A model generated the notes under the pieces. It was not told the origin of the DNA, made no database searches, and worked only from the letters and a program-made list of their open reading frames with translations. A stretch of DNA of 64,000 nucleotides, taken from positions 119,344 through 183,343 of the forward strand of contig JAVCDA010000010.1 of assembly GCA_030765145.1 (NCBI GenBank), in the 5' to 3' direction. The translations under genes were made by a program, and so were the position numbers. The DNA comes from Candidatus Saelkia tenebricola. GTDB lineage: Bacteria > Omnitrophota > Gorgyraeia > Kaelpiales > Kaelpiaceae. Positions 1 to 40,668 of this stretch are shown piece by piece (within the stretch, counting starts at the first letter, position 1; each line of letters starts with the position of its first letter).

Positions 1-11
1 AAAGCTATGAA

Positions 12-2144
12 ATGCGGAAAGAAATCTATGGAATCACCTCCAACTGGATTCTATATTTTTATTTAAGAGGTATGACCTCCTGGGATCAAATACTTTTCTC
101 TCTTAATGAAATATCCGCAATAACAAATCTCTCTTTAAAATATCGCCTTAATTACAGCCAGGACGATCTACGCTACTGGTTTCAGCATAAAAATGAATCC
201 GGATACACCATGAAAGAGCTAGAGCAAATTTTTTATTTAATGTCCCGCACTAAAACAATTCTGATTAAATCTATAGAAGAACTATATAGAATGGATGAAA
301 TATCGCCGCACATATCAAAGTTAAAACCCTATTTAGAGGAAATCAAAAATAAAAAAATGCATCCCGGTGAGATCCAAAGATTAGCAGAAGAGATCCTCTA
401 CCCTCAAAAAGTAAGTATCAAAGACCTAATAGAAGAATATAAAATCGGGGTTTTGATTCAAGCCTTATACCTTGCTGAATTAAACATCGAACTCACCCCT
501 TATGATATTACAGAAATATTCACTTTTTTTAAAAAAGAAGGCCTTAATATAGACGACTTGATTCAATTGATTAAAACAGAACAGCTTGTATATCAAATCT
601 TAGGTAAAAACGAACTTGCTTTTATCTTCAGAGAACCAGAGCTTCGAAAATTCATCTGGCAAAACACATATAACAGAGGATGGGAATCCACCAGCCAATA
701 TTTCAAAAAATGGGCATGGAAATTAACAACCTTCTTAAAAGAATTTAAACAAGAGCATGGTAGCCATCCGCCCAAAAGATTACTATATGTTCTATTAGAC
801 CGCCACATTGTCAATGCCCCCGATTGGCAAATGAGGAGATTAATACACCAAGGGAATCTCTCCCAAGAATCCAAAAACCCTCTTATCGTCAATCTAGGTG
901 AAAACTGGAATATAAAAAGGGAGTTACTTTTCTTCTGCTATGAACATTTGCCTATAGGAATTGACGCTGACAATCTAAACTCTTTAATATACTACTTTCT
1001 CAATCTCAATTTTTATGACTACTCGCACCTATTAGAATTAGAAAAAAAATTCGAAGAAAACATGGCTCAAACTGTTATTGCAAATGGCACACCCTACTTG
1101 GAAGACAGAATGAAGAAAATCATGCCTTTGGCTTTTCCGATGCTTAGATACTTTTATCAAAAGGAAAGTGTTTTCAAAGAAAGAATCAGCGGATTTTCAA
1201 AACGGTCAAAAAACGGTTTTAAAAGTATTGTTCCCAATACGAGTTTTCAGGAGATGTTAAATTCCCCCGAGAAAAGAATCGCAATAATAAAGCGCGTCCA
1301 AGATGCCGCCCGAAAATATTATAATGTCGAACTCTCTCCCGCCAGGACATACAGTATTATCTGGAAAATGCGCGAAGGATACCAACTCGAGGATGCACTT
1401 AGAATATTCATAGGTAATTACAGGCAGCTTAAAAACATTTACAAGACATCTGCGTCTAAAGAAATAACCGGGAATATTAGCAATCTGCTCTTACACCTTT
1501 CTCAGCAGATATATTTAACACCACTTGAGATAAAAGATTGCGAAAAAATATTCCTTATTATGCGTCAGCTTCAAATCATCAAAACAATAGGTAATAATGT
1601 ATTGTTCGAGCCCTCGCAAGATTACCGTAATGCCGAGTCTATTTACTTCACGGGGCTAGAGGCAAAAGATTTAAACAAAATCACAGGATTCTTAAAAAAG
1701 ACAGACCAATACCTGCCTCAAGAACAAAGGGATACTACTCTCTACCTATGTCTGAAAAGCTTTAAATCCCAGCCTTACTACATCCCAGGCATTGCAATGT
1801 ATGATTACAAAGATTATTATGAAACCCTCGGTGAAACCGATACTCCGAATAACAAACTTATATCCTATCTCAACAAAAACAATATATCGCCTCAAGGATA
1901 CTATTATATTTACTCTTCAGCTAAACACCATGCATCGAATTTAGGACTCTCCTCTAAATTTAAAAAATATATACTGGCATTCTTACTTTACGAAAAGACC
2001 AAAGACCCTCAAATAGTAAAAATCGCTTTGGATTTAAAAACAGATGCTGAAGTTTATGCTTGCCTGAATAAAATAGATAAGATTTTGGCTAAAAAGAAAC
2101 GAACCATAATAAAAAGAAACATTTTAGAAGAATGCAGATTTTAA
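12..2144 (+). CDS. hypothetical protein (710 aa), Lys/Tyr/Asn-rich, apparently soluble, no recognisable family
   Basis: Long uninterrupted ORF. Its stop overlaps the next ORF start by 13 nt (ATGCAGATTTTAA). No catalytic or binding motif recognised by eye. Confidence 0.5.
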   Translation: MRKEIYGITSNWILYFYLRGMTSWDQILFSLNEISAITNLSLKYRLNYSQDDLRYWFQHKNESGYTMKELEQIFYLMSRTKTILIKSIEELYRMDEISPHISKLKPYLEEIKNKKMHPGEIQRLAEEILYPQKVSIKDLIEEYKIGVLIQALYLAELNIELTPYDITEIFTFFKKEGLNIDDLIQLIKTEQLVYQILGKNELAFIFREPELRKFIWQNTYNRGWESTSQYFKKWAWKLTTFLKEFKQEHGSHPPKRLLYVLLDRHIVNAPDWQMRRLIHQGNLSQESKNPLIVNLGENWNIKRELLFFCYEHLPIGIDADNLNSLIYYFLNLNFYDYSHLLELEKKFEENMAQTVIANGTPYLEDRMKKIMPLAFPMLRYFYQKESVFKERISGFSKRSKNGFKSIVPNTSFQEMLNSPEKRIAIIKRVQDAARKYYNVELSPARTYSIIWKMREGYQLEDALRIFIGNYRQLKNIYKTSASKEITGNISNLLLHLSQQIYLTPLEIKDCEKIFLIMRQLQIIKTIGNNVLFEPSQDYRNAESIYFTGLEAKDLNKITGFLKKTDQYLPQEQRDTTLYLCLKSFKSQPYYIPGIAMYDYKDYYETLGETDTPNNKLISYLNKNNISPQGYYYIYSSAKHHASNLGLSSKFKKYILAFLLYEKTKDPQIVKIALDLKTDAEVYACLNKIDKILAKKKRTIIKRNILEECRF

Positions 2145-5100
2145 TTACTTCATTTAATTTAGCAGGCTGGTTCATAATTATAGTTCTTATAAAAGAACTT
2201 TTGAATGCTATTTTTGACTGTTTTGAATTCTACAGAAATACTTACATTAAAAACCCAACCGGTTGGACAAAAAGAAAATTGCGCTGGTATCTTTTAATAC
2301 ACCTACCGAATGAGCTCATAGCTTCATTGGTTGTTTTCGGCTATATATTTCTGCTATTTAACCACCGGGCATCCTGGTTATTCTTAATTGCTTTTTCAGG
2401 ATATTTGTTTAAAAAAATAATACAGGACCCAATTTATATTTTACACAGCTATTGTCTAAACTTTATCTGCAGAAAAGAAGAAATTAAACCCAGGAACACT
2501 GCCCTTGCAAATATCTTCCCTAATGCTATTTACATGCCCCACTTAGGATATTCTGAATCAGAAATTGATCAAGCTCTATCAACCTTATGTCTTTCCTACC
2601 TTAATAATAAAAATTGGAATACTTCCTTAATATACCATTCCGATAACAAAAATCCCGATTTTATACTGAAAGCCCTTAGGAAATTAAAATACCTGGCGAA
2701 AAAACTTAAAATCGATAATTTTATATTCTTGCAGCGAGATATTTCATCTCATGAAAAAAACTTCCTGGGTAAACCTGGTGCTTATCTTGCAGATTATCAA
2801 CTTTTGTCTACGGGTATAACACACCCGGTAATATACATAGAAAAAGAGTGGGATGCCAGGGTACAATTTAAATGTCAACTTGATACCGACAGCAGAATAG
2901 TTGTAGAAAAACCCCACTTACCATTTCTATTGCCGGATAAAATAGAATCCGGTTTTACACATTTTATCTATTACCCACACCCTAAACCCGGGTTCTACAT
3001 CAAAGAAAGTTTAAAACTCACTACTTCAAAAGGCAGAACCTTTTTTACAGAAGTAGAAACTAAACTACACCTGATTTCTAAAATAAACCCTAAAACCAGA
3101 TTTCTCCTTCACTTAGGCGGTATTTATACTCACAACGGTGATCTTATCTTGCGCCCAGAAGAATGGACAATACAGGCAACCGGTATAATAACACACAAAA
3201 CCACCCACCCTAAACTTCCCCTAGACCCTTATCAAATTATCATCCAAAAGACTATTTGCTTAGATGGGGTCAAGTGTTTTGTAGATAAAGATTTAAATAT
3301 TCTCAATAAAGAACTTGAAATTATCATACCTCATGGTGAATTTTCCATAAAGCACCATTATCAGCTTTATCAGCGTCAGAATGATTTCCTTTATCTTGTT
3401 GAAGACAATTTTGAACCTTTAAAAGAAAAACTAATCGGTGAGGATTTTAGAAGAGACCCTTTAAACCTACTGCATAAAATACCAACTGAGGTAATGGAAG
3501 AAATAGAAACGAGTGATGATTTCAACTATTTTGAAAAAAAACAACTTCGAAAAACAGGAATTTGGGACTCAAAAAACAGTTTTAAAAATTTTAAATTCGG
3601 CTGGGAGAAAGAATTTTTAATTAAAGATACTCTTATTAAAAACAGGTGTATTTTAAAAGGAGGCTATTATTTAATAGACGCGGATAAGATCCCGCTAGAT
3701 ATCTTCCATACCCCGAATATGGAAATTAAAACAGTACTTGCACAAGATAATATCTATGGACTTGATAAAGATGAAAAAATTCCTCTTTTAACTTTAAAAG
3801 GAGATCCTGTTTTAAACATTGATGGCAAAATACTTGTTAAAGCTCCCTATGTTGAGTTTTTTAAAGAATCCGATACAGGTTTTATCGTCAACGAAAAAGA
3901 CGGTTTTCTATATCGGTTAGGCATGCTTTATTTCTGCGGAGAAAAAAACATCTATCCTGTTTCTAAAAACGTTTGGGAATTAAAAAAACACCTCATTTAT
4001 ATTGAGCCAGCCAGCAACAATTTGATAAAGAAAACACTTATTGCAAGCCCCGGCGGTTATAAGTTAAAAAACAACTCTGTCATTTTGAAGAAAAAACTCT
4101 TGTCTAATCCTTTCTCCGTTTTTATTGAAAATAGAATGTTTAAAATTAAAGACCCCTTGAGTAATAAAATTTTATCTTTAGATAATTGCACTTTGGATGA
4201 ATACGGCATCTGGCTTGATGAAAAAGAAACTGAATTATCTTTATCGGAGCATTTAAAGTTTCAAGCTCATTATATATTCCAGGAAGAGATTATTGCAAAA
4301 CATGGAGAATACACAATTAATGACAATTTCGTAGAAACAGATGGGGTAAAACATCCTCTAGGCATTAATATTTGCCACGAAAATTCTCTTTTAAAACATC
4401 AAGGCCAAACCTTAAGAGCAAGCATATCCTTTATGATTATTAATCAAGTTGATTCTGATGGTGAATTTTTAAAAGACGCCCTCTGCGAAACAAATGCTAT
4501 ATTGACAGAGCAGCTGCTTTTAGATGAATTTGAATACGGCATGATTCAACCTGAAATTTCTTTTGCCAACTCATCAGATTCGTTATTTGCAAGGCTGCTT
4601 TCCTGGGCACATGAAGAATTTAAGTTTGCAGAACGTGCATTTTTTAATACCTATAAAGAGGGTAATTCTTACGGTAAAGTTTCCAAAGCCCTTCCTTTAT
4701 ATATAGGTAATATCCTGTTTAAAGAATCTATCCCTGCAATCGCTAGGACACATGACCACTGGGAGGCAATGCATTTAAGAACCCTTTTCCAATTCTCCGG
4801 AAAACACAAAGGTGCCCGATTAATAGAAAACGTGCCTTCCAACTTTTATAGTTTCTTAAAAAGAAAGCAAGGTTGGTTAACCGGCGATGTACTACTTCTG
4901 GAGTTGGAATCAAAAACAGGCACTCTAATAAGTCTTTTGCGCAGTATAAAATCTTTTTTATCGGGAAGAACAAAAGCTGCAAGATACTGGATTCAATATG
5001 CTCAAATTCACAGAAAGATGCTTAAACAATCTAAGAAAAATTACACTGCATTAGGATTACAAAGAATTTTAACGCTTCGAAGAACTGCTCTCTCAACAAC

Positions 5101-6502
5101 ATATCTTATGCTCTGGCTCATGCTATGCGGTTGGCTGGCATTGATAATACCCGGAAGCCTAAGCATTCAAAGCAGTTTGCTCAGTTGGATTCTATTCTTA
5201 ACATCAGTATTGCTCATTATAGTACTTCCAAAATTCTTTATTCCCTTAACAAATACTATTTTAAAAGAGATAAAAACATTTAGTGGATTCTGTTTTATAG
5301 CATTCACTATATATTCAGTTATCATTACTAATGATATTATTACCCGTCACCCTCAATCTATAGTTTACTCTGCAATTTTAGGCTACAGTTATATCTTAAT
5401 CAGAAGCCTGTTTTTGCCCCTATTCTTTATTATCTTGGGCAGCAGAAGACGTCTTCGAGTAAGGCTAGGAACACTAACGTTATTACTTCTTTGCCTATTG
5501 CTGCTTTTAAACGGCTACGATATCCTGCATTATCTTTCTACAAGTAAAAAATTTTACTGGATCACTTTGCTCTTCTTGAGCCAGCTTCCTTACGTTTGGA
5601 CATATTTAATACCGATTTATGTTATTTCCAGATTCTCTCGTTTGGGCAAAAAACTATTTTCTAACTTAAAAGAAGGCGCAAAAGAACTTTTAGCAACCAC
5701 ATCAACACTTTTGATGCATTTAGTTTACGAGCCCATTCATATCATTAGAGTATTTCTAATGCTTATCAAAAAACCTTTTTCAAAAATAGCTTGGTTTCCT
5801 CAAAGCTACTTTGACAGAATAGCAGCTAACATCACTTCCCTTCCCCGTGCCTATTGTTGTTTTTACCTGCCGCCATTATTTTGTTTGATCTTTATTATCA
5901 TCCCCTTAAAGCTGCATATTTTACCTCCTCAAATCCTTTCTTTGGGCTGGCCAATATTTATCTGGTCCTGGCTTTTAGGACCATTTTGGGCATACTGGAC
6001 ATGCAGGCACAGAAAGAACCTGCATAGAATTATTCCTTCGACTCTAATTATACGCCAAGTACTAAATCAATCTCTTGTCTTTACTGATACAAACCCTACA
6101 AAATTTAATAAAATCTTAGCAGACCTGCCTTACCAAATAGATGAGGAAGAGAAAATCAGGCTATATCTTTACTTCTTTACCGAAAAAACTCGCCTTATGC
6201 TCCCTAAAAAGAACCGAAACATATTAGACCGGATTGCTAACAAAACGGCGCGCATATCTTCTGATGCCAGAGTAACTGACTGGGAAACACTATCTGAATT
6301 CTCACGCGTAAAAATAATCAAGCAATTCCGAAAATATTTAGACAAAGATTTGCTTAAACAGATAAGTTTTTACAGTGATCTTCTTTTTAACATGCTCAAG
6401 AAAGGTTGGGCAGAAGTTGAGTGGCAAAATCTTTCCGAAACAGAGCAGTCCCAAATTATAAATACTCTGAGGCAAAAACACGCATTCAATCCCGAATTTT
6501 AA
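2132..6502 (+). CDS. giant polytopic membrane protein (1456 aa), unknown function
   Basis: N-terminal 3-4 hydrophobic helices, a soluble region of about 900 aa, a C-terminal block of about 8-9 TM helices (roughly aa 1000-1300) and a soluble tail. Translationally coupled to the upstream ORF. Confidence 0.55.
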   Translation: MQILITSFNLAGWFIIIVLIKELLNAIFDCFEFYRNTYIKNPTGWTKRKLRWYLLIHLPNELIASLVVFGYIFLLFNHRASWLFLIAFSGYLFKKIIQDPIYILHSYCLNFICRKEEIKPRNTALANIFPNAIYMPHLGYSESEIDQALSTLCLSYLNNKNWNTSLIYHSDNKNPDFILKALRKLKYLAKKLKIDNFIFLQRDISSHEKNFLGKPGAYLADYQLLSTGITHPVIYIEKEWDARVQFKCQLDTDSRIVVEKPHLPFLLPDKIESGFTHFIYYPHPKPGFYIKESLKLTTSKGRTFFTEVETKLHLISKINPKTRFLLHLGGIYTHNGDLILRPEEWTIQATGIITHKTTHPKLPLDPYQIIIQKTICLDGVKCFVDKDLNILNKELEIIIPHGEFSIKHHYQLYQRQNDFLYLVEDNFEPLKEKLIGEDFRRDPLNLLHKIPTEVMEEIETSDDFNYFEKKQLRKTGIWDSKNSFKNFKFGWEKEFLIKDTLIKNRCILKGGYYLIDADKIPLDIFHTPNMEIKTVLAQDNIYGLDKDEKIPLLTLKGDPVLNIDGKILVKAPYVEFFKESDTGFIVNEKDGFLYRLGMLYFCGEKNIYPVSKNVWELKKHLIYIEPASNNLIKKTLIASPGGYKLKNNSVILKKKLLSNPFSVFIENRMFKIKDPLSNKILSLDNCTLDEYGIWLDEKETELSLSEHLKFQAHYIFQEEIIAKHGEYTINDNFVETDGVKHPLGINICHENSLLKHQGQTLRASISFMIINQVDSDGEFLKDALCETNAILTEQLLLDEFEYGMIQPEISFANSSDSLFARLLSWAHEEFKFAERAFFNTYKEGNSYGKVSKALPLYIGNILFKESIPAIARTHDHWEAMHLRTLFQFSGKHKGARLIENVPSNFYSFLKRKQGWLTGDVLLLELESKTGTLISLLRSIKSFLSGRTKAARYWIQYAQIHRKMLKQSKKNYTALGLQRILTLRRTALSTTYLMLWLMLCGWLALIIPGSLSIQSSLLSWILFLTSVLLIIVLPKFFIPLTNTILKEIKTFSGFCFIAFTIYSVIITNDIITRHPQSIVYSAILGYSYILIRSLFLPLFFIILGSRRRLRVRLGTLTLLLLCLLLLLNGYDILHYLSTSKKFYWITLLFLSQLPYVWTYLIPIYVISRFSRLGKKLFSNLKEGAKELLATTSTLLMHLVYEPIHIIRVFLMLIKKPFSKIAWFPQSYFDRIAANITSLPRAYCCFYLPPLFCLIFIIIPLKLHILPPQILSLGWPIFIWSWLLGPFWAYWTCRHRKNLHRIIPSTLIIRQVLNQSLVFTDTNPTKFNKILADLPYQIDEEEKIRLYLYFFTEKTRLMLPKKNRNILDRIANKTARISSDARVTDWETLSEFSRVKIIKQFRKYLDKDLLKQISFYSDLLFNMLKKGWAEVEWQNLSETEQSQIINTLRQKHAFNPEF

Positions 6503-7228: not shown

Positions 7229-7675
7229 CTATCTATTTTTGCTATCTAAGATTATGGTAACAGGACCGTAATTAGTAAGCGTAATATCCATATGGGTTTT
7301 AAATATACCTTGGACGACTCTTACATTTTGTGATTTCAAATATTGAAAAAATTTATCAACCATGTCCTTTGCCTTATCCGGAACCATTGCATTATCAAAA
7401 GAAGGACGTCTACCTTTTTTACAATCCGCAAAAAGCGTAAATTGAGAAACTAAAATAACCTCTCCCTTAACATCAAGAAGTGATTCATTGAGCTTCCCTT
7501 CATTGTCTTCAAAAACACGCAGATTTATTATTTTATTTCCCAGCCATATGATATCCTCATCATTATCGCCACATCCAATTCCAAGTAATATCAAAAACCC
7601 ATGGCTAATACTACAAATTATACTCTCATTAACAACAACATTTGCATTTTTTACTCTCTGCAAAACTGCTTTCAT
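7229..7675 (-). CDS. dtd: D-aminoacyl-tRNA deacylase
   Basis: 148 aa with MKAVLQRV N-terminus, SQFTL motif and NYGPVT C-terminal motif characteristic of Dtd. Confidence 0.9.
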   Translation of the reverse strand: MKAVLQRVKNANVVVNESIICSISHGFLILLGIGCGDNDEDIIWLGNKIINLRVFEDNEGKLNESLLDVKGEVILVSQFTLFADCKKGRRPSFDNAMVPDKAKDMVDKFFQYLKSQNVRVVQGIFKTHMDITLTNYGPVTIILDSKNR

Positions 7676-9174
7676 TGTAGGGAGTTTGACTCCATTTTCT
7701 TAAGACATTTTGAATAATACCCACCAGTATAAGCATCCAAAGCAGCGGTTAACTCTTCCAAATACATCATCTGCTTGATATACTCATAGCTATTTTTAGG
7801 AGTTTTGTTTAAAAGTTCATTTTTCACCCTTAATCGTTCGAAATAAAGACGGTTTACTTCATTTAAAATATCTATTCTCAATTGGGTATTAAGCCTGGCG
7901 CGTGTGTCAACATCATCTTGGTACATATTCCAAATCAAATTATCTAAATCCCAAGTTAAATCCAAACTCCAATCCCGAGGACCAATTTGAACTTTGTCAT
8001 AGCTTGCGCCTAAAGCAGTAGTCACGGTTTTATCGTATCCTAATTTAAGTTGAGGCATAAGTGCCCGATATTTCAGAGATATTCTCCAAGCCCTGATTTT
8101 TTCCGGACTCACTTCATTATAAGCCAAAGACTCTTCTTGAATCTCCTGACAACTAGGCTCATCCTTACAAAGCAATTGATACTGCCGTTCTATCAACTCT
8201 TGGGAATCCTCTCCTTCAATAAACACACCTCGCGATGTTGCGAGATAAATCTTACCTTTATTATCCATGCTGATACAATTTATCTTCCCCGTCGGCAGAC
8301 CTTCATAAATTTTCATAGCAGTACGCCTTGAGGGATAAGCTTTGAATAACCCCTCATCAGTTGCGATGTAAACAGTTTCCGGCATTGATTGAAAAATAAA
8401 ATTGATTTTTGTGTTAGGCAACCCTTGTAAATATGTTTTTATAAAACTTTTGCCTTGGTTACTCGATACAAAAAGCCCGTTATTTGTGCCCATGTAAATT
8501 TTTCTTTTATCTTTTACACCTACCTGAATAATAGAAGGGGTATTTCTGTGTTCTTCTCCCTCAGAATCTTTCTCGCCATCAACATCTATAAATACATCTT
8601 CATCCCGTGACGCTACAAAAGTACGTCGGAAATGTAGTAAATCATTACTTTCGTAAACACCCATATTAGTTGCTATGTATAGAAAAGGTTTTGAATAATC
8701 AACCCAGTAAACCTCAATTTTGCTCGACAACGTTTGGATTTTCTGAAAGTTATACACCCCCATATCTGCATGATATAATCCCTCACTTGTTCCCAAATAA
8801 ATTTTAGAGCCGATTCTCTTTACATAAAAACATTTTACATTCTGATTTCTATCTCTAAATATGTACTCGAACCTTTCTTGGTCCCTGGTAAGCAGCAACC
8901 CGGAATCTGCTGCTATAAAAAGCAGACCGTATTCTGTCGGATCAGGATATACAAAATTAATATTGCCCTCTTTTATTTTATAAATCAGCTTCCAGATGTT
9001 CGAAGCTTCTTTTTTATACAATGTATCACCTGAGGCGGCATAGATTATCTCATCATTAAAAGGATGCAACAGAAGAAAAGAAATGTCAGAATCCATTAAT
9101 CCCGAAATTTGTTCAAACTCTGCTTCTGCTGATAAAGGAAGAAACAGAATAAAAACAACCAGAATAAGCAACAT
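7672..9174 (-). CDS. secreted repeat protein, probable beta-propeller (Reg_prop/YVTN-like repeats)
   Basis: Signal peptide MLLILVVFILFLPLSAEA. Repeated (I/V)Y(L/I)(A/G)T..G(L/V)(F/Y) blocks about 45-50 aa apart. Distinct C-terminal 130 aa rich in Trp/Asp/Leu. Confidence 0.5.
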   Translation of the reverse strand: MLLILVVFILFLPLSAEAEFEQISGLMDSDISFLLLHPFNDEIIYAASGDTLYKKEASNIWKLIYKIKEGNINFVYPDPTEYGLLFIAADSGLLLTRDQERFEYIFRDRNQNVKCFYVKRIGSKIYLGTSEGLYHADMGVYNFQKIQTLSSKIEVYWVDYSKPFLYIATNMGVYESNDLLHFRRTFVASRDEDVFIDVDGEKDSEGEEHRNTPSIIQVGVKDKRKIYMGTNNGLFVSSNQGKSFIKTYLQGLPNTKINFIFQSMPETVYIATDEGLFKAYPSRRTAMKIYEGLPTGKINCISMDNKGKIYLATSRGVFIEGEDSQELIERQYQLLCKDEPSCQEIQEESLAYNEVSPEKIRAWRISLKYRALMPQLKLGYDKTVTTALGASYDKVQIGPRDWSLDLTWDLDNLIWNMYQDDVDTRARLNTQLRIDILNEVNRLYFERLRVKNELLNKTPKNSYEYIKQMMYLEELTAALDAYTGGYYSKCLKKMESNSLQ

Positions 9175-10009: not shown

Positions 10010-11494
10010 CTATTTTTCAATCCCTAAAATAATATCGTGATTTTTTTCTGCCTCCTGTTCTTCGCCTATAGCTATAAGACTGTCAGCCATACCTTGCAAT
10101 GCAACAGTGTTAGAGGAATCTATAAAATGAGCTTTTAAGTATTCTTCTAATGCCATTTTCGGGCGCCCCATAAACAGCAGAACACCTCCATAATTAATAT
10201 GATATTGCATCTGTACATAGTCATTCTGTGGAAAATCCTTTTTCATCTTCGTCCAAAGCATCAAATTATTCTCCCAATATTTAACCTCATATGAACTTTT
10301 GATAAAATAAAAACCTAAAGTAACCACAACTAAAACAACGACTGCTTTATATGCTTTACCATTTAAAATTACCTGTTTTAATAACATTCCTAGAAGAATT
10401 GCAAACCCCACAGAAGGGATGTAGAGATACCGCGCAGCTATTAGTGAAGGCAGATAGCGTATCGCACAAAGCGGCGCAAGATTAATCAGAATCCAGCTAT
10501 TAGCTAATTTAAGTTCAAAACTCCCTTTTAAAATACCTCTAATTGCAAGAAATAGTAATAATATTACTGTGACACAATTAAAAATCACTTCTACACCAAC
10601 TTCCCTAATAGGTGTAAATTGCTCTATTAAATAAAACTTGATTCCTGAAGGCATAAGAAGCCATTCAATATATTGGGCAAAGGTTTTTACAACCGTTAGA
10701 ATTTCACCGTAAAACCCTGCATCTAAAACCCTCTGGTTTACCGCTTCCGGCGGATTACAATAAAACCTTAGAAACCCAAATAGTACGGTAATAAAAACCA
10801 ACCCTAACATTAAAAACAAAATTTCTTTTTTGTCAGCACGAATCGTCTTACTCTTGAATGCAAGATATACATAAAGAGCAATGAGAATGAGAAAAGTTAA
10901 TGCACTCTCCTTAGAAAGAATCGCCAAAACATAAAGAACGCAGCATACCATAGATTTTATAAAAAAAATTTTTCTTTTAGATTTTAGTGCTGAAATAAAA
11001 ACAAAAAAAGCTGTTAAGTAAAAAAATAACGCCATTAAATCATGCCTGTAAGTAGCTATTACAACAGTTTCTACATTAACCGGGTGCATAAGAAATACTA
11101 AAGAAGCTACTAAACTCACTAACCGTTGAGATAGCAAAAAAAGGCAAAACCTATATATTAAAAATGTGTTCAGGATATGGAAAAGGAGATTCGTTAATTT
11201 AAAACCAGCTGGATTTAAACCCCAGAATTTATAATCAAAAAAGAAGGTAAGTGTTTTAAGTGGTCGATAGCTTATTTCACCGCTGGCATAAGAATATTTA
11301 TTAAAGCTTTCTTTAATATTGCCTGGATGCAAAAATAAAGTCTTGATATTACCTAAATCACTCAAAAATGATTCCCGTTGCGCTATTATAGACCAATCGT
11401 CACCTGCAAAATCAAACCCCAGGACCTCTCCATAAAGAGAACAGGCTATAGCAATTATTATAAGATAGGCATATAAATCGGATTTTTTAATCAA
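10010..11494 (-). CDS. GT-C fold glycosyltransferase (PMT/ArnT-like, GT39/GT83) with C-terminal TPR
   Basis: About 11 TM helices. Acidic DD motif in the first periplasmic loop after TM1 (GFDFAGDDWS). C-terminal soluble TPR-like tail. Confidence 0.65.
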   Translation of the reverse strand: MIKKSDLYAYLIIIAIACSLYGEVLGFDFAGDDWSIIAQRESFLSDLGNIKTLFLHPGNIKESFNKYSYASGEISYRPLKTLTFFFDYKFWGLNPAGFKLTNLLFHILNTFLIYRFCLFLLSQRLVSLVASLVFLMHPVNVETVVIATYRHDLMALFFYLTAFFVFISALKSKRKIFFIKSMVCCVLYVLAILSKESALTFLILIALYVYLAFKSKTIRADKKEILFLMLGLVFITVLFGFLRFYCNPPEAVNQRVLDAGFYGEILTVVKTFAQYIEWLLMPSGIKFYLIEQFTPIREVGVEVIFNCVTVILLLFLAIRGILKGSFELKLANSWILINLAPLCAIRYLPSLIAARYLYIPSVGFAILLGMLLKQVILNGKAYKAVVVLVVVTLGFYFIKSSYEVKYWENNLMLWTKMKKDFPQNDYVQMQYHINYGGVLLFMGRPKMALEEYLKAHFIDSSNTVALQGMADSLIAIGEEQEAEKNHDIILGIEK

Positions 11495-14051
11495 TCTGCT
11501 TGCAGTCTTTTGCCAGCTTTAACACCGCTAGTTCAAAACCTGATTGATAGCTATTTTTATAAATAGGGACAAAATGGAGATTGAATTTTGCTTTATCCGT
11601 ATTGTCTTTGCGATCAAAATCGTTAACAGCAATTGAAAAATTGATTTCAGCACCTGTTTGCGGTGTGACATTTAATACTGAAAATGGAATAGTTATTGCA
11701 AGCTCATATCCTTCTTTAGTCAATTTTGAAATTGATTTGACTTCTTCAATATCACGCTCCTGAAACCAGGCATATTTTATAGCTACACTATTCCTGCCCG
11801 GAGCAAATCCAAGCTGAAAATGCTCTTTATTGCCCCAGTAAAGTCTTTCACCGACTGGAGCAATGTACAGCTCAACACAATCATTTTTATAAAGAGTTTT
11901 TGCTTCTTCTTCTGCTATGACATCGTTATCGCTAACCTTTACCCAGAAGTATAAATTTTCTTCATCCCAGCTTGCTTTATATTCGCAACCCAAGTCATAA
12001 GGATATTTTGTAATCGCACCATGTTCCAAGGCCTGCTTGGGGGTTAATTTATACAATTGACCTTCGATTGATGAATCTGCGTATTGAGCAACAATAACAG
12101 GCTTTTTATCCGCCTCCAGTTTAATGGCACCATCCTTAAATCCTGCAATCTGCATAGCTTTTTTTATGTATTCGTTACGCATAAAATATTCCCAGACAAA
12201 TCCTGAAAGATAATTCTCAATCATAAGCATAATCGGGCCCTGGTCAATACCTATTACAACATCGGAATACCAGTTCTTATCTCTGTTAAAACTATCCACA
12301 AACCCGTAATTTCCCCAGATATAATCTTTGTGGTTTTGGTACATCCATCTTAAAGCACTAATACATTCAGCGGGTGCAAACGGAGTACTTCCTCCTACAG
12401 CAGTAAAAGCAACAGTACCATCATAATGCGCATAACCAGGAGGCGCCCCATAAGCACGGTAACCTGCAGGAGATTCACATGCAGTTAGTCCCCAAGAATT
12501 TTTATTAAACGTTAAAGAATTTTCCTTATTATTAATACAAAACTGCCTGTTGGCTAAAGTCGCATTGACCGATGAAGTAAAATAATCTGCGTAATCATCG
12601 TGCTTGTTTCTGAAATCAACCCAAATATGAGAAAATTGATGGGTAAACATAGGCGGCGATGATAAGCAGGTATACCCTTCATAATCCCAAATAGGCCTCC
12701 TTACATCATACCAAACTGATTCAGTTATCGGATGCGTCGGCGACCCCAAGGCCAGTAAATACATAATCAACTGTTCGCCATATTTATTCCAGCGATCAGG
12801 CAAAAACCCTGATTCAGGAGTCCACCCCATACATATATTGTCACCTTTACCCAGCATCCAATCCCACTCCACACGTTGATAAATCTCATCCGCCAATTCT
12901 TTTACTTTGCACCCGAAATATTCTCCGGCAAACAATGCCCCGGCTAAAAAAAGAGCTGTATCTATTGAAGAAAGCTCGCAATTCCAAACCCTATCTCCAT
13001 TATCCATACCCACAAAATGGTAGAAAAACCCATGCACATTTTCCATCCTGTCTCTGAAGAAGAATAAAGTATTTAAAACTCTTTCCATTGCCTCTTCCCG
13101 CCTAATCCACCCTTTCTCAACAGCTACAGGATATGCAGTTAAAGCAAAACCAACCGCTGCAATAGAAGCAACTTTAAAATTGTCTTTTTTAAAATTATTA
13201 GCTTTGTCTTTCGTTAAACCCGTCTCAGGGTTAGTTTCGCGCCAGAAATAACCGAAAGATTTTCTCTGAATTAATTCTAAAAATTCCCTATCGCTTATAG
13301 TAGATATATCGGGCTTAGGAATACATTCTCTTAAAGTCGGATAAACACCACATAAAGGCTGTTTTAAAATTTCTTCTTTGGTAAAGTATGCATCATCTAT
13401 ATAGATAGTTCCTTCCTTATCAGTAACACGCCAATCTTCAAACACAAAAATCAGTTCCTGCATCTTATCAAATTCAGATATCCCCATAAATTTATTTAAT
13501 GGAATAACATACTGTTTCCAGTCATCTTCTAAATCTGTAAGATAATGAATTCCTTTCTCGCCTTGTGTGTTTTTTAATTCCAGCTTAAAATGTTTGGTAA
13601 AACCACGTTTTTTATCCCCCTTTGCCGATAAAACTAGATATCTATAATCATTTAAGTTTTTATTCTCCAGCTTAAACCAAATACCATTAAAAGCCGGATT
13701 GGGAGAATCAACATCGTAGTCAATTCTTAAGGAATACCCTTTCTCGCCTTTTTTAACCAAAGGAGAAAATGAATCAAAACAATTCTGCGTAAAATCATCG
13801 GGGTCTTTATCCCAGGCTCCAAAACTACATCCAGAACCTTGATTTGATTTTTCGTTAAAATGTGCCAGCAAAATAATTCCCGGAAGTTCCACCTGAGGAA
13901 TAGTATCTAAATCAGCAAGAAATTCTTCTCGTGCATTCTGAACCCTGTCTTTTTCTTTTTGAACCTCCAGGTGTTTATAAAACAAGGTACTTATGATTGC
14001 TGCCAGAAAAAATAACACTAAGATTATTTTGAAAAATTTTTCTTTAAACAA
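11487..14051 (-). CDS. membrane-anchored glycoside hydrolase, glucoamylase-like (alpha/alpha)6 catalytic region, with an N-terminal CBM-like domain and a C-terminal CBM9-like domain
   Basis: TTG start with AGAGGTG SD 7 nt upstream. N-terminal TM anchor. A domain at aa about 60-225 is paralogous to ORFs 14120..14698 and 31149..31727. The central region resembles putative glucoamylase / beta-1,2-glucanase-like families. The C-terminal block (ASWDEENLYFWVKVSD...CVELYI) is typical of family 9 CBM-like domains. Confidence 0.55.
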   Translation of the reverse strand: MFKEKFFKIILVLFFLAAIISTLFYKHLEVQKEKDRVQNAREEFLADLDTIPQVELPGIILLAHFNEKSNQGSGCSFGAWDKDPDDFTQNCFDSFSPLVKKGEKGYSLRIDYDVDSPNPAFNGIWFKLENKNLNDYRYLVLSAKGDKKRGFTKHFKLELKNTQGEKGIHYLTDLEDDWKQYVIPLNKFMGISEFDKMQELIFVFEDWRVTDKEGTIYIDDAYFTKEEILKQPLCGVYPTLRECIPKPDISTISDREFLELIQRKSFGYFWRETNPETGLTKDKANNFKKDNFKVASIAAVGFALTAYPVAVEKGWIRREEAMERVLNTLFFFRDRMENVHGFFYHFVGMDNGDRVWNCELSSIDTALFLAGALFAGEYFGCKVKELADEIYQRVEWDWMLGKGDNICMGWTPESGFLPDRWNKYGEQLIMYLLALGSPTHPITESVWYDVRRPIWDYEGYTCLSSPPMFTHQFSHIWVDFRNKHDDYADYFTSSVNATLANRQFCINNKENSLTFNKNSWGLTACESPAGYRAYGAPPGYAHYDGTVAFTAVGGSTPFAPAECISALRWMYQNHKDYIWGNYGFVDSFNRDKNWYSDVVIGIDQGPIMLMIENYLSGFVWEYFMRNEYIKKAMQIAGFKDGAIKLEADKKPVIVAQYADSSIEGQLYKLTPKQALEHGAITKYPYDLGCEYKASWDEENLYFWVKVSDNDVIAEEEAKTLYKNDCVELYIAPVGERLYWGNKEHFQLGFAPGRNSVAIKYAWFQERDIEEVKSISKLTKEGYELAITIPFSVLNVTPQTGAEINFSIAVNDFDRKDNTDKAKFNLHFVPIYKNSYQSGFELAVLKLAKDCKQID

Positions 14052-14071
14052 TTGTAAACACCTCTTTACAG

Positions 14072-14099
14072 AAAGGCGGAGTTAAAATGCTCCGCCTTT
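14072..14099. other. perfect 10-bp stem hairpin (AAAGGCGGAG-loop-CTCCGCCTTT) between two co-oriented genes; no U-tract
   Basis: Inverted repeat read directly; 8-nt loop. Confidence 0.5.
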
Positions 14100-14119
14100 A
14101 AAAACATTGTTTTATAATT

Positions 14120-14698
14120 TTACTTTTCAAACTGAACATCGTCGAAATAAACAGTTCCTTCTTTAACCGGGATACGCCAGTCTTCAAAAACAACAACAAA
14201 CTCATCCATGTTGGTCAAATCGGAAATCCCAGCTATTTTAGCAAGAGAAATTTCAATTTTCTGCCATTTATCAGTAACCCCTGTAACGTAATATTTGCCA
14301 ACTTCGCCAATATTGTTTTTCAATTCAATCTTAAACAACGGGGTAAAACCTCTTTTAACATCCCCTTTTACCCAAAAAGTAAAAGTCTCATATTTTGACA
14401 CATCAGCTCCGTTCAGTTTCATCCAAAAACCGTTGTAAGCAGCATTTGGAGAATCAACATCATAATCAACCCTGAGACAAAATCCTTTACCATCTTTTGT
14501 CTCAACAGTGTTAAAACTTTCAATTGCGGTTTGTGAAAAATCCATAGGATCTCTATCCCAAGCACCAAAATCACCATTAACGTTATTGGGCTTAACACCG
14601 GAATCAAAATCTGCAATCGAAAACACATCTTCTAACGCACAAGCAGAGCCACCCGCTACTAACAAAAAACATCCGACTAACAAGCCAAACATTTTCAT
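14120..14698 (-). CDS. secreted single-domain protein, CBM-like domain paralog
   Basis: Start chosen at MKMFGLLVGCFLL, a signal peptide preceded by a GGAGGTG SD. Shares FGAWD.DP.DF, DYDVDSPN, VKGD.KRGF and VVFEDWR...KEGT.Y.DD motifs with the N-terminal domain of the hydrolase next door. Confidence 0.6.
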   Translation of the reverse strand: MKMFGLLVGCFLLVAGGSACALEDVFSIADFDSGVKPNNVNGDFGAWDRDPMDFSQTAIESFNTVETKDGKGFCLRVDYDVDSPNAAYNGFWMKLNGADVSKYETFTFWVKGDVKRGFTPLFKIELKNNIGEVGKYYVTGVTDKWQKIEISLAKIAGISDLTNMDEFVVVFEDWRIPVKEGTVYFDDVQFEK

Positions 14699-14779
14699 AC
14701 ACCCACCTCCTTTTTTTGAAATTCTATCTTTTTTACTTATGCCACAAAACACATCTTTTGTCAAGTCGATAAGAGACTG

Positions 14780-15985
14780 CTACACCATAGCATGCGTAAA
14801 AATATGTTGAATAACAAGGCTGACGGCACCTAAAGCAACCGCATTCTCTCCCAATTGCGTAGGAACAATGCGTACCTGATGACCGATTTCCTCAAATGTC
14901 TTGTCTCTAACAACCCTTTTGATCTCATCCAATAACACCGAACCTGCTCTTTCTATCCCACCGCCAATTACCACAACCTCGGGATTAAGCATCTGAATAA
15001 GATAGGCAATCCTAATACCCAATTCTTCCCCAGATTTTTTAACAAGTTCTATTGCAAGAGTATCTCCTTCCCTGGCTGCCTCAACTACAGATTTAAAATC
15101 TATTTTTCCCGCATCACCTCCGCAAAGTTCTAATATTTTAGAGTCAACGCCTTCTGTTATCACTGCTTTTTGTGCTTTTTCTTTCAATCCTAAATCTGCC
15201 TGCCAGCGGTCAAGGCCTTTAAAATTTTGTTTTTCCTGATCTGTTAAACCCGGCAAGCCTAACTCACCAGAACATCCTGTTGCACCGGAATAAATCTGAC
15301 CATTAATTATAATACCGCAACCGACTCCGGAGTACATAAAAACAAGGTTTTTCACTTCACTTTCAAGCTCAAACTCCCTCTCTCCAAAAGCTGCAACAGT
15401 AGCATCGTTTTCTACATACACAGGCATATTAAATTTTTGCTCTAACATATTTTTCAAGGTTGAGATGTAAATACTACCCATTTGTTCCGGCCAGCGAATA
15501 GTGCCTCCTTTTCTATCCACAATACCAGGAATACCGATACCAATACCTTTAATTTGACCTTCATCCAATTCTGATTTTTTAATAAGCTCCTCCACAATGT
15601 CTGTCAGAGCATCAATTAAAAACCCTTCCGCCCCTCCTTCTGGTCTGGGTTTTTTAATCTCCACAAGAACATTAGCCTTGAGATCCGTTATAATCCCAAT
15701 AATATTAACTAAGTCCAGCCCAACACCAACAATATAAGCAGCCTTAGGGTTAAGCTCTAAAACCACAGGACGCCTACCACCGGTAGAAACATCCAAACCG
15801 CCCTCTATTACCATACCTTTTTGAATATAATTATTTACATAATTAGAAACAGTAACGATGTTCAGCTCTGTTTCCTTTGAAATCTCAGTCCTGGTAATAG
15901 GTCCTTTTCTGCGAATTAAATCTAAAATTGAAAAATTCTTTCTCTCTCTATCCGCTAATACTTCCCCCATTGCCTCTACCATCAC
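14780..15985 (-). CDS. ROK family transcriptional regulator (N-terminal wHTH plus ROK sugar-kinase-like domain); zinc motif apparently degenerate
   Basis: HTH region ILDLIRRKGPITRTEISKETELNIVTVSNYV. Glycine-rich ROK sugar-kinase-like core. Only GCSGELG is present where CxCGxxGCxE is expected. Confidence 0.8.
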   Translation of the reverse strand: MMVEAMGEVLADRERKNFSILDLIRRKGPITRTEISKETELNIVTVSNYVNNYIQKGMVIEGGLDVSTGGRRPVVLELNPKAAYIVGVGLDLVNIIGIITDLKANVLVEIKKPRPEGGAEGFLIDALTDIVEELIKKSELDEGQIKGIGIGIPGIVDRKGGTIRWPEQMGSIYISTLKNMLEQKFNMPVYVENDATVAAFGEREFELESEVKNLVFMYSGVGCGIIINGQIYSGATGCSGELGLPGLTDQEKQNFKGLDRWQADLGLKEKAQKAVITEGVDSKILELCGGDAGKIDFKSVVEAAREGDTLAIELVKKSGEELGIRIAYLIQMLNPEVVVIGGGIERAGSVLLDEIKRVVRDKTFEEIGHQVRIVPTQLGENAVALGAVSLVIQHIFTHAMV

Positions 15986-15998
15986 TACCTCCTTTAAT

Positions 15999-16100
15999 GA
16001 GTCCGTTACTTATGGAGCAAAGCTAACATAAGCAACATGGGCGAATTACGAGCCTGTTACTTATGGAACAAAATTGACATAAGTAACCTGGGTAAATTAT
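15999..16100. promoter_or_regulatory. two tandem 51-bp repeats (about 78% identical), each containing the palindrome GTTACTTATG-N12-CATAAG(T/C)AAC; candidate operator pair upstream of the ROK regulator gene
   Basis: Direct read: repeat 1 at 15999-16049 and repeat 2 at 16050-16100. Half-sites at 16005-16014/16029-16038 and 16056-16065/16078-16087. Confidence 0.6.
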
Positions 16101-16110
16101 CTGTCAATAA

Positions 16111-17448: not shown

Positions 17449-18655
17449 CTAATCAGATAACATAACTGAATCATTTTCGGCAATCTGCATCTTAGGTAAA
17501 CTAAGTAGAATACTGGCTGCAGAGGTAACCTCTCTGACATCAATGACTTGAAGCTTAGCGATCAATGTGTTGCCTCGGTATATGGAAAATCCCATACCAA
17601 TTTGCACCCCATCTCTTCTGCCAATATCGATGATTATAAAACCTTCCTCTACATTAACAAAGACAACTCTTCCTTTAAGTAGCTCGTCTTTAATTTCTAT
17701 TCTGGGTAATTCTACAGCTTCGCCTTCAGTATCGTAATTTAGTTTTTTTATCTTTTCCAATGCCATCTCAAGATCCTGTTTTAATTTTGTAACCTCTAAC
17801 ACTTCGTCTTCCAAAACTCGATTAATATATCCAATCCTTTGATTGAATATTTCTTTTTCTTTTTTCTCTTTTTCGACATTCTGTTCTAACTGTGTAATTC
17901 TTTCGCTTATTTCCTTTTTTCTGTCCTGCGCCTGTGCAACCTTCATCTGAAGCGTATTTTTATCTCTTTGCATTTCTTCCACCTGCTTTATATATGAAAA
18001 CTTCTCTTTCTTCTCCTGCTCCAAAGATGCGCTTAAGGAAGACACTATCTTTTTAGTATCCTGAAACTTATTTTCTAAATTTTCTTTTTTATCCAATAGA
18101 TCATTTACAATATTATTTAAATTTTCTTTCTCCTTCTCAAACCTTGAAATCTCGCTATCTTTTTTCTCTAAAAGTCTTTCCAAACTACTAAGCCTTAATT
18201 CTAGATTGGATTTCTCCCGCAACAAATTTGACCAGAAACTGTCATCACCTGTGTTATTGTATTTTATATTCTCTTGGCTTGTAAAACTTGCTTTGACATC
18301 ATTCTTCTCCCGTACTAATCTAGCAACACTTTCCCGTAACCGCATATTTTCATCAGCCAGCTCCTTGAAGTTGTTTTCAGAAATAAGTTTTTCCTCCTCC
18401 ACTTTCGACAGATGTGTTTGATACTTATTAAGATTGGCCTGTATTTTTTCAATCTCTGACTTAAACTTGTCGAGATCAAACTCCAAGTCTCTATTTGTTT
18501 GATACCAAAGCACTTTTTCTTCTGTGTATCTGGAATAAATTTTTCTATTCTCTAACCCAAGCCAAACGGCAGAAATAACAGACACGCTTAAGAGCGTACC
18601 GCATAAAGAATAAATTACTGTTTTTACTGAGTCCGACATTTTCATATTGTTCTTG
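17449..18655 (-). CDS. membrane-anchored coiled-coil protein with a C-terminal small beta-rich module; last gene of the RND efflux operon
   Basis: Start taken at MKMSDSV, giving a 14-nt overlap with the upstream RND gene; the ORF-track start at 18792 lies inside that gene. One N-terminal TM helix, then about 280 aa of heptad-rich Glu/Lys sequence. The C-terminal GRVVFVNVEEGFIIIDIGRRDGVQIGMGFSIYRG block resembles the C-terminus of the OMF. Confidence 0.6.
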
Positions 18656-21695: not shown

Positions 21696-21698
21696 AAA

Positions 21699-37837: not shown

Positions 37838-40668
<2,831 letters not shown>

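Follow-up and report, generated by a model that had tools for sequence, protein, structure and literature searches.

What do the two long, overlapping open reading frames (ORFs) at the edge of a 64,000-nucleotide stretch of Candidatus Saelkia tenebricola DNA (the window; 33-35% GC) encode? The phylum concerned, Omnitrophota, is uncultivated and noted for giant proteins and a host-dependent way of life. A sequence-only reading of the window had described the pair as a 6.5-kb unit for proteins of 710 and 1456 amino acids (aa) without a recognisable family, and had guessed at a membrane-embedded machine or glycan polymerase. To our knowledge, beta-1,2-glucan synthases are known from two lineages only, Cgs (GT84) and OpgH (GT2). 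Here, we provisionally annotate two 'hypothetical' genes, which together account for ~12 kb in a small genome.

The gene pair and its giant upstream member

The two ORFs lie at 12..2144 and 2132..6502 on the forward strand and share 13 nt (ATGCAGATTTTAA; Table 1). Both are real genes, as is their overlap. Full-length homologues of ORF2 are found at 28-72% identity and collinear homologues of ORF1 at 21-70% identity, and collinear full-length homologues with conserved motifs occur in at least eight further Omnitrophota assemblies, the phylum to which the gene pair is restricted. An identical 13-nt overlap is present in the closest relative (L002) and in L006/L007, an overlap of 4 nt in L008 and one of 10 nt in L011.

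The 710 aa attributed to ORF1 are not a complete protein. Its frame is free of stop codons from window base 3 up to the ATG at 12, and the upstream gene of L002 specifies a protein of 2534 aa and shares 13 nt with the ORF2 homologue, as in the window. The window ORF1 aligns with residues 1825-2534 of this protein at 70% identity and without gaps, hereby pairing its Met1 with an internal Ile. Because of the open frame and this alignment, ORF1 is identified as the predicted C-terminal ~28% of a ~2500-aa protein truncated by the window edge. The true start of the giant gene lies ~5.5 kb upstream of the window. The conserved unit consists of a predicted secreted protein (~2500 aa) and, after it, a membrane protein (~1450 aa), and measures ~12 kb instead of 6.5 kb. 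In all loci reaching upstream (L002, L003, L004, L006/7, L008, L011, L012) the giant gene is located 5' of ORF2, which it mostly overlaps; in the most distant clade it is split into two genes.

Table 1. Features of the locus, with coordinates in the window
Feature	Position	Strand	Remarks
ORF1, 3' end of the giant gene	1..2144	+	Last ~711-713 codons of ~2500-aa secreted protein; all alpha-helical, no TM
Overlap of giant-gene stop codon and ORF2 start codon	2132..2144	+	13 nt, ATGCAGATTTTAA
ORF2, putative divergent Cgs(GT84)/OpgH-type membrane-embedded GT-A glycosyltransferase	2132..6502	+	1456 aa
N-terminal TM helices, about 3 (residues 1-97)	2132..2422	+	Hydropathy
GT-A N-terminal half (residues ~125-241)	2504..2854	+	AIYMPHLGYS strand, IYHSD171, KPGAYLADYQ; hhalign A8 vs A7
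Beta-rich insertion inside GT-A, ~530 aa (residues ~242-769)	2855..4438	+	Limits from hhalign
GT-A C-terminal half (residues ~770-930)	4439..4921	+	D774-S-D776, QPEISF, T-H-D875, KRKQ-G914-W915; hhalign A1 vs A7
C-terminal TM block (residues ~985-1290)	5084..6001	+	Hydropathy, AF2 helices
Extra TM helices within the C-terminal TM block, about four (residues ~1045-1166)	5264..5629	+	hhalign gap; absent from minimal relatives
C-terminal soluble tail (residues ~1300-1456)	6029..6502	+	Family-conserved, without known domain
Exported PF10091 ('Glycoamylase', GH144-type beta-1,2-glucanase family) + CBM9 protein	11487..14051	-	Pfam E 3.2e-70

The earlier description of ORF1 as soluble and rich in Lys and Tyr stands (K 9.7%, Y 7.2%, no hydrophobic segment, soluble by hydropathy). 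ORF1 has no Pfam, NCBIfam or direct PDB-sequence match, and no fold match was found. The giant partner of L002 carries a Sec signal peptide. In the split orthologues L003 and L004, the N-terminal half of the partner matches the Pfam family of TolC/OprM (OEP, PF02321) with 44.7 and 42.7 bits (cut-off 22). In partners of the 2500-aa type the match is below threshold for L006 (E 0.031) and L011 (E 0.0023) and absent from L002, L008 and L012; the window part of the partner, ORF1, gives no OEP signal either. Moreover, hhalign comparison of partner N-terminal halves with E. coli TolC was not significant. In contrast to TolC, the giant partner is five times longer, in the clade of the window its OEP similarity is faint or missing, and its C-terminal ~1200 aa, including ORF1, have no TolC counterpart.

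Relationship of ORF2 to membrane glucan synthases

ORF2 has no Pfam, NCBIfam or direct PDB-sequence match to a glycosyltransferase or to anything meaningful. Curated models (Pfam Glyco_trans_2_3 and similar, NCBIfam OpgH) do not match any of 10 family members at E<=10, and the same Pfam, NCBIfam and direct PDB searches returned nothing for at least 20 relatives. A profile of ORF2 residues 750-1299, searched against 1.84 billion representatives, retrieved 37 proteins at E<=1e-3, among them ~620-aa minimal relatives, which curated family models likewise leave unmatched. The alignment of these minimal relatives (A7) matched Agrobacterium Cgs (8rf9/8rf0) over its GT84 and TM region (Cgs 417-978; E 2.1e-29), and in hhalign E. 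coli OpgH with Prob 98.7 and E 1.6e-16 over 464 columns (OpgH 214-708, including TM regions). In turn, the ORF2 family (A1) matched A7 over residues 770-1372 (hhalign, Prob 99.8, E 4.7e-29), and A8 matched it over ORF2 residues 86-240 (Prob 97.0, E 1.2e-10). The TM bundle following the GT domain is homologous as well, since the hhalign match runs through ORF2 930-1300 (PGxL, LPKF, WxPxxxSWLLGP) with an insertion of four helices. Compared with a single OpgH sequence, ORF2 gave no significant hhalign match (Prob 1.5-4.9%), though the register was correct, and the motifs are shared in this register (QxDSD/LDADS, THDHWEA/SHDFVEA, KRKQGW/KRDRRW).

By sequence and by fold, the two known beta-1,2-glucan synthase lineages are the closest relatives. 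Profile comparisons thus make ORF2 a clear, if remote, homologue of two kinds of membrane glucan synthase, Cgs (GT84) and OpgH. The assignment is transitive, because direct searches against Pfam, NCBIfam, PDB and the single OpgH sequence fail. The statement that the pair has no recognisable family therefore holds for direct HMM libraries and falls for ORF2 upon two-step profile searches and fold comparison, which reveal clear homology to a known family, the outcome that the sequence-only reading had named as its refutation, and lend support to the guess of a membrane-embedded glycan polymerase. A GT-C or O-antigen ligase identity is ruled out, the fold being GT-A/GT2-like. The wider superfamily comprises the ~620-aa synthases and domain copies inside proteins of 4000-7800 aa; no Pfam model covers it.

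Architecture and active site of ORF2

Topology was described correctly from the sequence alone: N-terminal TM helices (residues ~2-97) are followed by ~890 soluble aa, a TM block (~990-1290) and a soluble tail of ~160 aa. The Lys/Arg-rich loop between TM1 and TM2 would fit a cytoplasmic GT domain, a placement suggested by the ORF2 sequence and the topology of Cgs (PMC10901819). AF2 models the N-terminal half of the GT-A domain as an alpha/beta fold (pLDDT 76-86) and the insertion as mostly strands (pLDDT 70-89). Where ORF2 has these ~530 aa, minimal relatives have ~50 residues, and the insertion is restricted to the ORF2 family proper. Neither internal repeats (BLAST) nor a significant PDB fold match were detected in it. 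The C-terminal half of GT-A is poorly modelled, with pLDDT <50 for residues 805-926; active-site geometry is therefore not supported by the model.

Asp171, Asp774, Asp776, Asp875 and Trp915 are invariant in 10 of 10 ORF2 family members and map via A7 to D527, D624, D626, D739 and W774 of Cgs, the roles of which have been described (PMC10901819). Accordingly placed are the first UDP-coordinating Asp of the GT-A half (IYHSD171; Cgs D527, BcsA D179), the DxD metal/UDP motif (D774-S-D776, DAD in some members; aligned with SDADV of A7 and D624-A-D626 of Cgs) and the catalytic-base motif (A871-R-T-H-D875-H-W-E, invariant; aligned with LSHDF of A7, SHD739 of Cgs and BcsA D343). The Q/R-x-x-R-W motif, in which Arg contacts the diphosphate and Trp stacks on the acceptor (Cgs R773-W774; PMC10901819), is not kept. 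Trp915 is invariant, but the Arg, whose diphosphate-contacting counterpart in BcsA is R382, corresponds to G914 in nine of the ten members and to Glu in one. The family variants of this region are KRKQGW, KRRMGW and KRQMEW, whereas minimal relatives keep RW. Because the Arg is replaced, the donor site is altered and activity of ORF2 is not assured; the invariant K910 and R911, just upstream, could take over its function.

Compared with Cgs, no region of ORF2 matches the N-terminal, cyclase (GH189) and GH94 phosphorylase domains, and the autoglycosylated primer Tyr694 corresponds to Phe832. Conversely, the GT-A insertion, the additional TM helices (about four) and the giant secreted partner of ORF2 have no equivalent in Cgs. 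OpgH (MdoH; GT2; osmoregulated periplasmic glucans; opgGH operon) shows the same layout of N-terminal TM helices, GT-A domain and C-terminal TM helices. OpgH pairs with OpgG, and minimal relatives likewise pair with an exported beta-1,2-glucanase-family gene, which is of the PF10091 (GH144) type as opposed to OpgG/D (GH186). Both the 2500-aa operon partner and the missing RW Arg set ORF2 apart from OpgH.

A proposed envelope machine and its alternatives

On balance we lean, if only slightly, towards ORF2 being a processive glycosyltransferase of the inner membrane that depends on UDP-sugars, belongs to the Cgs(GT84)/OpgH lineage and is coupled to the giant envelope partner. Three N-terminal TM helices would lead into a cytoplasmic GT-A domain beneath the C-terminal TM bundle. 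If OpgH, BcsA and Cgs are a guide, Asp171 and D774-x-D776 would hold UDP-sugar and metal, Asp875 of the THD motif would take the proton from the acceptor hydroxyl, and Trp915 would stack against the elongating chain; this chain might then enter or traverse the TM bundle. Homology to Cgs does not imply translocation by ORF2, since Cgs does not export its own product. The product would most likely be a beta-glucan, plausibly beta-1,2-linked; product specificity is not readable from identities of 10-25%. UDP-glucose-dependent synthesis of such a glucan is suggested by gene context, with PF10091 genes next to minimal relatives and near ORF2, and one minimal relative adjoins genes for glucokinase, PGI and G6PD. 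The beta-rich module and the additional TM helices may serve in regulation, priming or docking, and the Sec-exported partner may make up the periplasmic and outer-membrane portion of the apparatus, through which the polymer would pass or to which it would be anchored.

A synthase-like component, as in the Bcs A/B/C cellulose, PgaABCD and Alg8/44/K/E systems, is present in ORF2, and gene order alone suggests that it is coupled to its partner. PilZ or another c-di-GMP module, a GGDEF-I-site, TPR and a porin domain were not detected in ORF2 or its partner. The exporter of these systems consists of TPR and a beta-barrel porin, whereas the giant partner is TolC/OEP-like at best, and in distant orthologues only. 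Rather doubtful, and proposed tentatively, is an Omnitrophota trans-envelope polysaccharide machine in which a Cgs/OpgH-derived synthase, remodelled by a cytoplasmic beta-module of 530 aa and by additional TM helices, feeds glucan into a secreted 2500-aa protein of TolC-like repeats and a long helical extension, serving as duct or surface anchor, with the superfamily as a third branch of beta-1,2-glucan synthases.

What speaks against an active glucan synthase is the family-wide loss of the RW Arg (G914), together with the interruption of the GT-A domain by a large insertion and the poor AF2 prediction of the catalytic half. ORF2 might thus be an altered or inactive descendant serving as membrane scaffold, UDP-sugar sensor or assembly platform for the giant protein, with the insertion as its functional part. 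In E. coli, OpgH doubles as a UDP-glucose-dependent inhibitor of FtsZ. Still, neither the three acidic motifs nor the Trp vary among members sharing 28-72% identity, as would be the case in a working active site, and K910/R911 could stand in for the Arg, and we regard this explanation as unlikely. We assign a similarly low chance to an active processive synthase of some other polymer (for instance another beta-glucan, a hexosamine polymer or a glycolipid). Here the altered RW motif would point to a changed donor site, and the GH144-type gene in the window would be coincidental. This gene, whose product has a hydrophobic N-terminus, is a possible accessory of the unit and lies ~5 kb off in the window and in L002. 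L002 is alone among the ORF2-family loci read in having a PF10091 gene nearby, such a neighbour being absent from most loci. The glycan-gene neighbourhood seen by the sequence-only reading is conserved in the closest relative and not in the other loci read. Against another polymer stand the kinship with the two beta-1,2-glucan synthase lineages and the operonic GH144-type genes of minimal relatives, where an exported PF10091 gene lies directly 3' in three of five cases.

The remaining explanations carry far less weight. A wholly undescribed family without link to known catalytic or transport families, the earlier view, would agree with the failure of direct database searches, which still applies to the ORF1 region and the ORF2 insertion; profile-profile and fold comparison assign ORF2, with strong statistical support, to the GT-A lineage of Cgs and OpgH and render this view very improbable. 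That both ORFs are split pseudogene fragments or spurious products of AT-rich DNA has a negligible chance: a GC content of 33-35% lengthens random ORFs and ORF1 begins at the window edge, but full-length collinear homologues exist in at least eight other assemblies, with pair and overlap conserved.

If ORF2 is the glucan synthase that we favour, its superfamily would add a third, deeply divergent branch which curated models do not detect. In the ORF2 subfamily, the GT-A domain tolerates a 530-residue insertion and the loss of the RW Arg while keeping its acidic motifs, which bears on donor binding. That ORF2 stays coupled to a secreted and possibly TolC-like protein of 2500 aa points to a new arrangement for export or anchoring in Omnitrophota. 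Should the trans-envelope machine prove true, it would represent a new synthase-dependent secretion architecture, possibly involved in envelope building or attachment in ultra-small host-associated bacteria. In its simple version the branch consists of two genes, the first for a ~620-aa synthase and the second for an exported GH144-type enzyme.

The gene pair at the window edge

ORF2 is identical (100%) to P9M06_01475, a hypothetical protein encoded in the MAG 'Candidatus Saelkia tenebricola' (phylum Omnitrophota). The GC content of the window is 33-39%. The sequence-only reading described ORF1 and ORF2 as overlapping by 13 nt, which is borne out by the sequence ATGCAGATTTTAA, and ORF1 as a soluble, Lys/Tyr-rich protein, which agrees with its composition (Lys 9.7%, Tyr 7.2%, no hydrophobic segments). 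The view of ORF1 as a gene of 710 aa had to be abandoned. The reading frame is already open at base 3, and its product aligns to the C-terminus of a 2534-aa protein of the closest relative, L002. There, on a 197-kb contig, the gene for this protein lies upstream of that for P0002, a 72%-identical ORF2 homologue, with the same 13-nt overlap as in the window. ORF1 matches residues 1825-2534 of the L002 protein without a gap, at 70% identity, its 'Met1' aligning to an internal Ile. The gapless match and the open frame identify ORF1 as the final 28% of a protein of ~2500 aa that is truncated by the window edge.

A giant partner is encoded upstream of the ORF2 homologue in all relatives with a contig reaching that far. 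Partner and ORF2 homologue comprise 2533 and 1449 aa in L006/L007, 2559 and 1421 aa in L008, 2534 and 1448 aa in L011, and 2276 and 1629 aa in L012. In the most distant clade the partner is split, into 1321 + 1352 aa in L003 (ORF2 homologue 1594 aa) and 1364 + 1374 aa in L004 (1631 aa). Split and fused types align collinearly, and a local match between them is significant (BLASTP 1e-9). In the nearer clades, start and stop codons of partner and ORF2 gene overlap by 4-13 nt as a rule. Scanning 185,579 species (one genome each) by exact peptide patterns, which detect the close family only, we found 8 loci, 7 labelled Omnitrophota/Omnitrophica and 1 labelled Planctomycetia. No Pfam-A or NCBIfam model detects the pair, and it is not mentioned in the Omnitrophota giant-protein preprints or in the Ace Lake paper naming Ca. 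Saelkia.

Concerning the neighbourhood, an opposite-strand rhomboid gene lies downstream in four of six loci (window, L002, L004, L008), as does a D-aminoacyl-tRNA deacylase gene (window, L002, L003, L004). The glycan genes noted earlier beside the pair are indeed present in the window, but are conserved only in the closest relative: a cluster of GT2, PF10091+CBM9, CBM11, ROK and solute-binding protein genes is common to the window and L002 alone. Upstream of the giant gene, precomputed Pfam matches reveal intein and LAGLIDADG insertions in a ribonucleotide reductase gene, one in L002 and two in L004. RHS-repeat proteins are encoded just downstream of the ORF2-family gene in L010 (1508 aa) and of a minimal synthase and PF10091 gene pair in L017 (1630 aa); their adjoining the synthase genes may be coincidence.

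Positions of features in the window and in related loci
Feature	Locus	Position	Strand	Remark
ORF1	window	12..2144	+	
ORF2	window	2132..6502	+	1456 aa
Unannotated protein, signal peptide	window	7672-9174	-	500 aa; kept in L002
Unannotated exported/membrane protein	window	10010-11494	-	494 aa; kept in L002
Exported PF10091+CBM9 protein	window	11487-14051	-	kept in L002
Possible beta-glucan utilisation cluster	window	11487-17382	-	kept in L002
Two tandem AcrB-type RND transporter genes	window	18642-25145	-	1017 + 1148 aa
Replication-origin region	window	35388-45570		
gyrA	window	35388-37814	-	
gyrB	window	37838-40390	-	
dnaN	window	40670-41776	-	
dnaA	window	41975-43324	-	
dnaA-yidC gap, likely oriC	window	43325-44091		767 bp
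yidC	window	44092-45570	+	
Ribonucleotide reductase gene	L002	1-449		
Ribonucleotide reductase gene	L004	1-1375		
RHS-repeat protein	L010	6071-10597		
Minimal synthase + PF10091 module	L017	151-3360		
RHS-repeat protein	L017	3412-8304		
Minimal synthase + PF10091 module	L019	1514-4731		
Minimal synthase + PF10091 module	L020	547-3722		

Family, catalytic residues and insertion of ORF2

The layout read from the ORF2 sequence is correct, with hydrophobic helices spanning residues ~2-97, a soluble region to ~985, a hydrophobic block at ~990-1290 and a soluble tail of ~160 residues. In direct searches, none of the ten ORF2-family members has a Pfam or NCBIfam match, even at E<=10, and neither ORF2 nor its family profile matches PDB sequences meaningfully (phmmer, hmmsearch). 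ORF1 likewise gives nothing beyond noise in Pfam, NCBIfam and PDB sequences. Matches of ORF1/ORF2 to a designed repeat protein, calnexin and MxiM among the PDB sequences were rejected as noise.

The ORF2 family alignment contains invariant motifs resembling those of OpgH, the GT2 synthase of osmoregulated periplasmic glucans (AIYMPHLGYS, IYHSD, KPGAYLADYQ, QxDSDGEF, QPEISF, ARTHDHWEAM, KRKQGWLxGD). Aligned with the single E. coli OpgH sequence (hhalign), the family falls into the right motif register at a non-significant Prob of 1.5-4.9%, which we took as a lead only. When 1.84 billion cluster representatives were searched (HMMER) with a profile built from ORF2 residues 750-1299, 37 proteins emerged at E<=1e-3. 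Among them are minimal relatives of ~620 aa, which consist of a GT-A-like domain between N-terminal and C-terminal TMs, contain no insertion and have no Pfam matches. An alignment of nine of these (A7) matches Agrobacterium Cgs (8rf9/8rf0) at E 2.1e-29 over its GT84 and TM region, as well as E. coli OpgH (hhalign; Prob 98.7%, E 1.6e-16; 464 columns), and the ORF2 family in turn matches A7 at ORF2 residues 770-1372 (Prob 99.8%, E 4.7e-29) and 86-240 (Prob 97.0%, E 1.2e-10). Although ORF2 was first held to be without recognisable family, this two-step comparison places it with OpgH and Cgs, the GT84 enzyme that makes cyclic beta-1,2-glucan. Judged from sequence, ORF2 very probably belongs to the Cgs/OpgH GT-A lineage.

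In Cgs, UDP is bound by D527 and D624, the latter making up the DxD motif together with D626; D739 acts as the base, R773 is the Arg of the RW motif, and Y694 serves as primer site (PMC10901819). Mapped through the A7-Cgs and ORF2 family-A7 alignments, D527 corresponds to D171 of ORF2, D624-x-D626 to D774-S-D776, D739 to D875 (T-H-D) and W774 to W915, all invariant in the ORF2 family. R773 corresponds to G914 (Gly in 9/10 members, Glu in 1/10) and Y694 to F832, a position that is not Tyr in the family. The RW motif is kept in the minimal relatives. Moreover, ORF2 lacks both the cyclase and the GH94 domain of Cgs. This residue mapping and the missing domains assign ORF2 to the broader Cgs/OpgH GT-A lineage with a modified donor site, rather than to Cgs itself. 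For residues 805-926, AF2 confidence (below 50) is too low to show the geometry of the pocket. We predict with moderate confidence that ORF2 is catalytically active.

The GT-A halves of ORF2 lie ~530 residues apart (242-769), compared to ~50 residues in the minimal relatives; the insertion is limited to the ORF2 family proper. It is predicted to be almost all beta-strand (AF2, pLDDT 70-89), without internal repeats (BLAST) and without a significant PDB fold match; the whole ORF2 model has no PDB match at E<=1e-3 (Foldseek). An assignment of the insertion to CROP-containing clostridial toxin was rejected, since these top-ranked Foldseek matches were insignificant. All soluble domains of Cgs are cytoplasmic (PMC10901819), and by this homology the insertion should be cytoplasmic, with which the Lys/Arg-rich TM1-TM2 loop agrees. 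The TM block of ORF2 has ~4 helices more than that of the minimal relatives (residues ~1045-1166).

Minimal relatives and the predicted product

Three of the five minimal relatives with contigs read (P0027, P0038, P0040) are directly followed on the same strand, sometimes with an overlap, by a PF10091 'Glycoamylase' gene. PF10091 is the family to which the GH144 endo-beta-1,2-glucanases belong. OpgH is a synthase and OpgG a periplasmic glucan-processing enzyme; since the PF10091 partners carry N-terminal hydrophobic signal or anchor segments, the pair of minimal relative and exported PF10091 protein mirrors the OpgH/OpgG logic. A fourth minimal relative adjoins glucokinase, PGI, G6PD and 6PGD genes. 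From this context and the PF10091+CBM9 protein of the window, beta-1,2-glucan emerges as the most likely product, a prediction we make tentatively. The evidence is circumstantial in the case of the ORF2 subfamily, as the majority of its loci have no PF10091 neighbour (none found near L003, L004, L006, L008, L010 and L012). The SGL-clan literature is found in PMC12102758.

The minimal relatives thus paired represent a two-gene module of a ~620-aa Cgs/OpgH-like membrane GT, not covered by Pfam, and an exported PF10091 (GH144-type) protein of 434-446 aa. Apparently, the module is a counterpart of opgGH, or else a Cgs GT+CY split in two; it would offer a simpler experimental entry than ORF2. In the window, the possible beta-glucan utilisation cluster comprises the gene for the exported PF10091+CBM9 protein together with genes for a CBM11 protein, a member of the ROK family and a sugar ABC solute-binding protein. 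Two unannotated genes separate ORF2 from the PF10091 gene; their products have only a weak SycD/LcrH-type TPR match (494 aa) and weak propeller-repeat matches (500 aa).

Giant partner, proposed mechanism and further observations

At its N-terminus the L002 partner carries a Sec signal peptide of typical form, MSKKLLSIGSILLILFSTHSA/ES, and it has many long helices in its N-terminal half. Pfam OEP (TolC-type outer-membrane factor) matches the N-half of the split orthologues in 3-4 stretches (44.7 and 42.7 bits, cut-off 22), whereas among partners of the fused 2500-aa type it stays below threshold in L006 (E 0.031) and L011 (E 0.0023, residues ~121-285). The L002, L008 and L012 partners give no OEP signal, and partner N-halves do not match E. 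coli TolC significantly (hhalign). For the C-terminal ~710 residues, ORF1, the predicted structure is entirely alpha-helical (pLDDT 70, pTM 0.40), and this model matches only generic small helical bundles. A word-indexed protein search with ORF1 or an 8-sequence ORF1 alignment was empty, although orthologues of 32-70% identity (2533-2559 aa) are cluster representatives in the searched collection; this reflects a limit of the index, and such negatives for long Lys/Ile/Leu-rich proteins are not to be taken as absence. That the partner belongs to the same machine as ORF2 we rate as an even chance; that it is a TolC-like conduit seems rather unlikely.

The analysis shows the homology, the conservation of the catalytic residues, the coupling of the genes and the signal peptide; the mechanism proposed in the following is inferred. 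ORF2 would elongate a glucan at the cytoplasmic face from a UDP-sugar, probably UDP-glucose, and pass the chain into the TM bundle, while the beta-rich insertion might regulate, prime or dock. The exported giant partner, which translational coupling would keep at a fixed ratio, would form the periplasmic and outer-membrane part, perhaps serving as a TolC-like duct or anchoring the polymer at the surface. Membrane-embedded GT-A glucan synthases are a kind of system already known; what is new in this variant is the GT-A split by an insertion of 530 aa, the changed RW motif, the additional TM helices and the obligatory giant secreted partner.

The GT/TM domain is also found within giant proteins, namely P0016 (6091 aa, domain at residues 3519-4092), P0018 (4224 aa), P0019 (7817 aa), P0030 (4150 aa), P0031 (5515 aa) and P0045 (5373 aa). 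P0018, the giant tested, and the smaller relatives P0020, P0021 and P0025 have no Pfam matches. The wider superfamily, including the minimal synthase and GH144-type pairs and the giant-embedded domains, appears to be unannotated. That a gene fusion connects these GT-containing giants (4150-7817 aa) with the giant partner was rejected, as phmmer detected no similarity between them.

Elsewhere in the window, two AcrB-type RND transporter genes lie in tandem; AcrB-type pumps normally require a TolC-type outer-membrane factor. The window further contains a replication-origin region, in which the sign of the GC skew switches between ~42 and 44 kb and the gap between dnaA and yidC is likely oriC.
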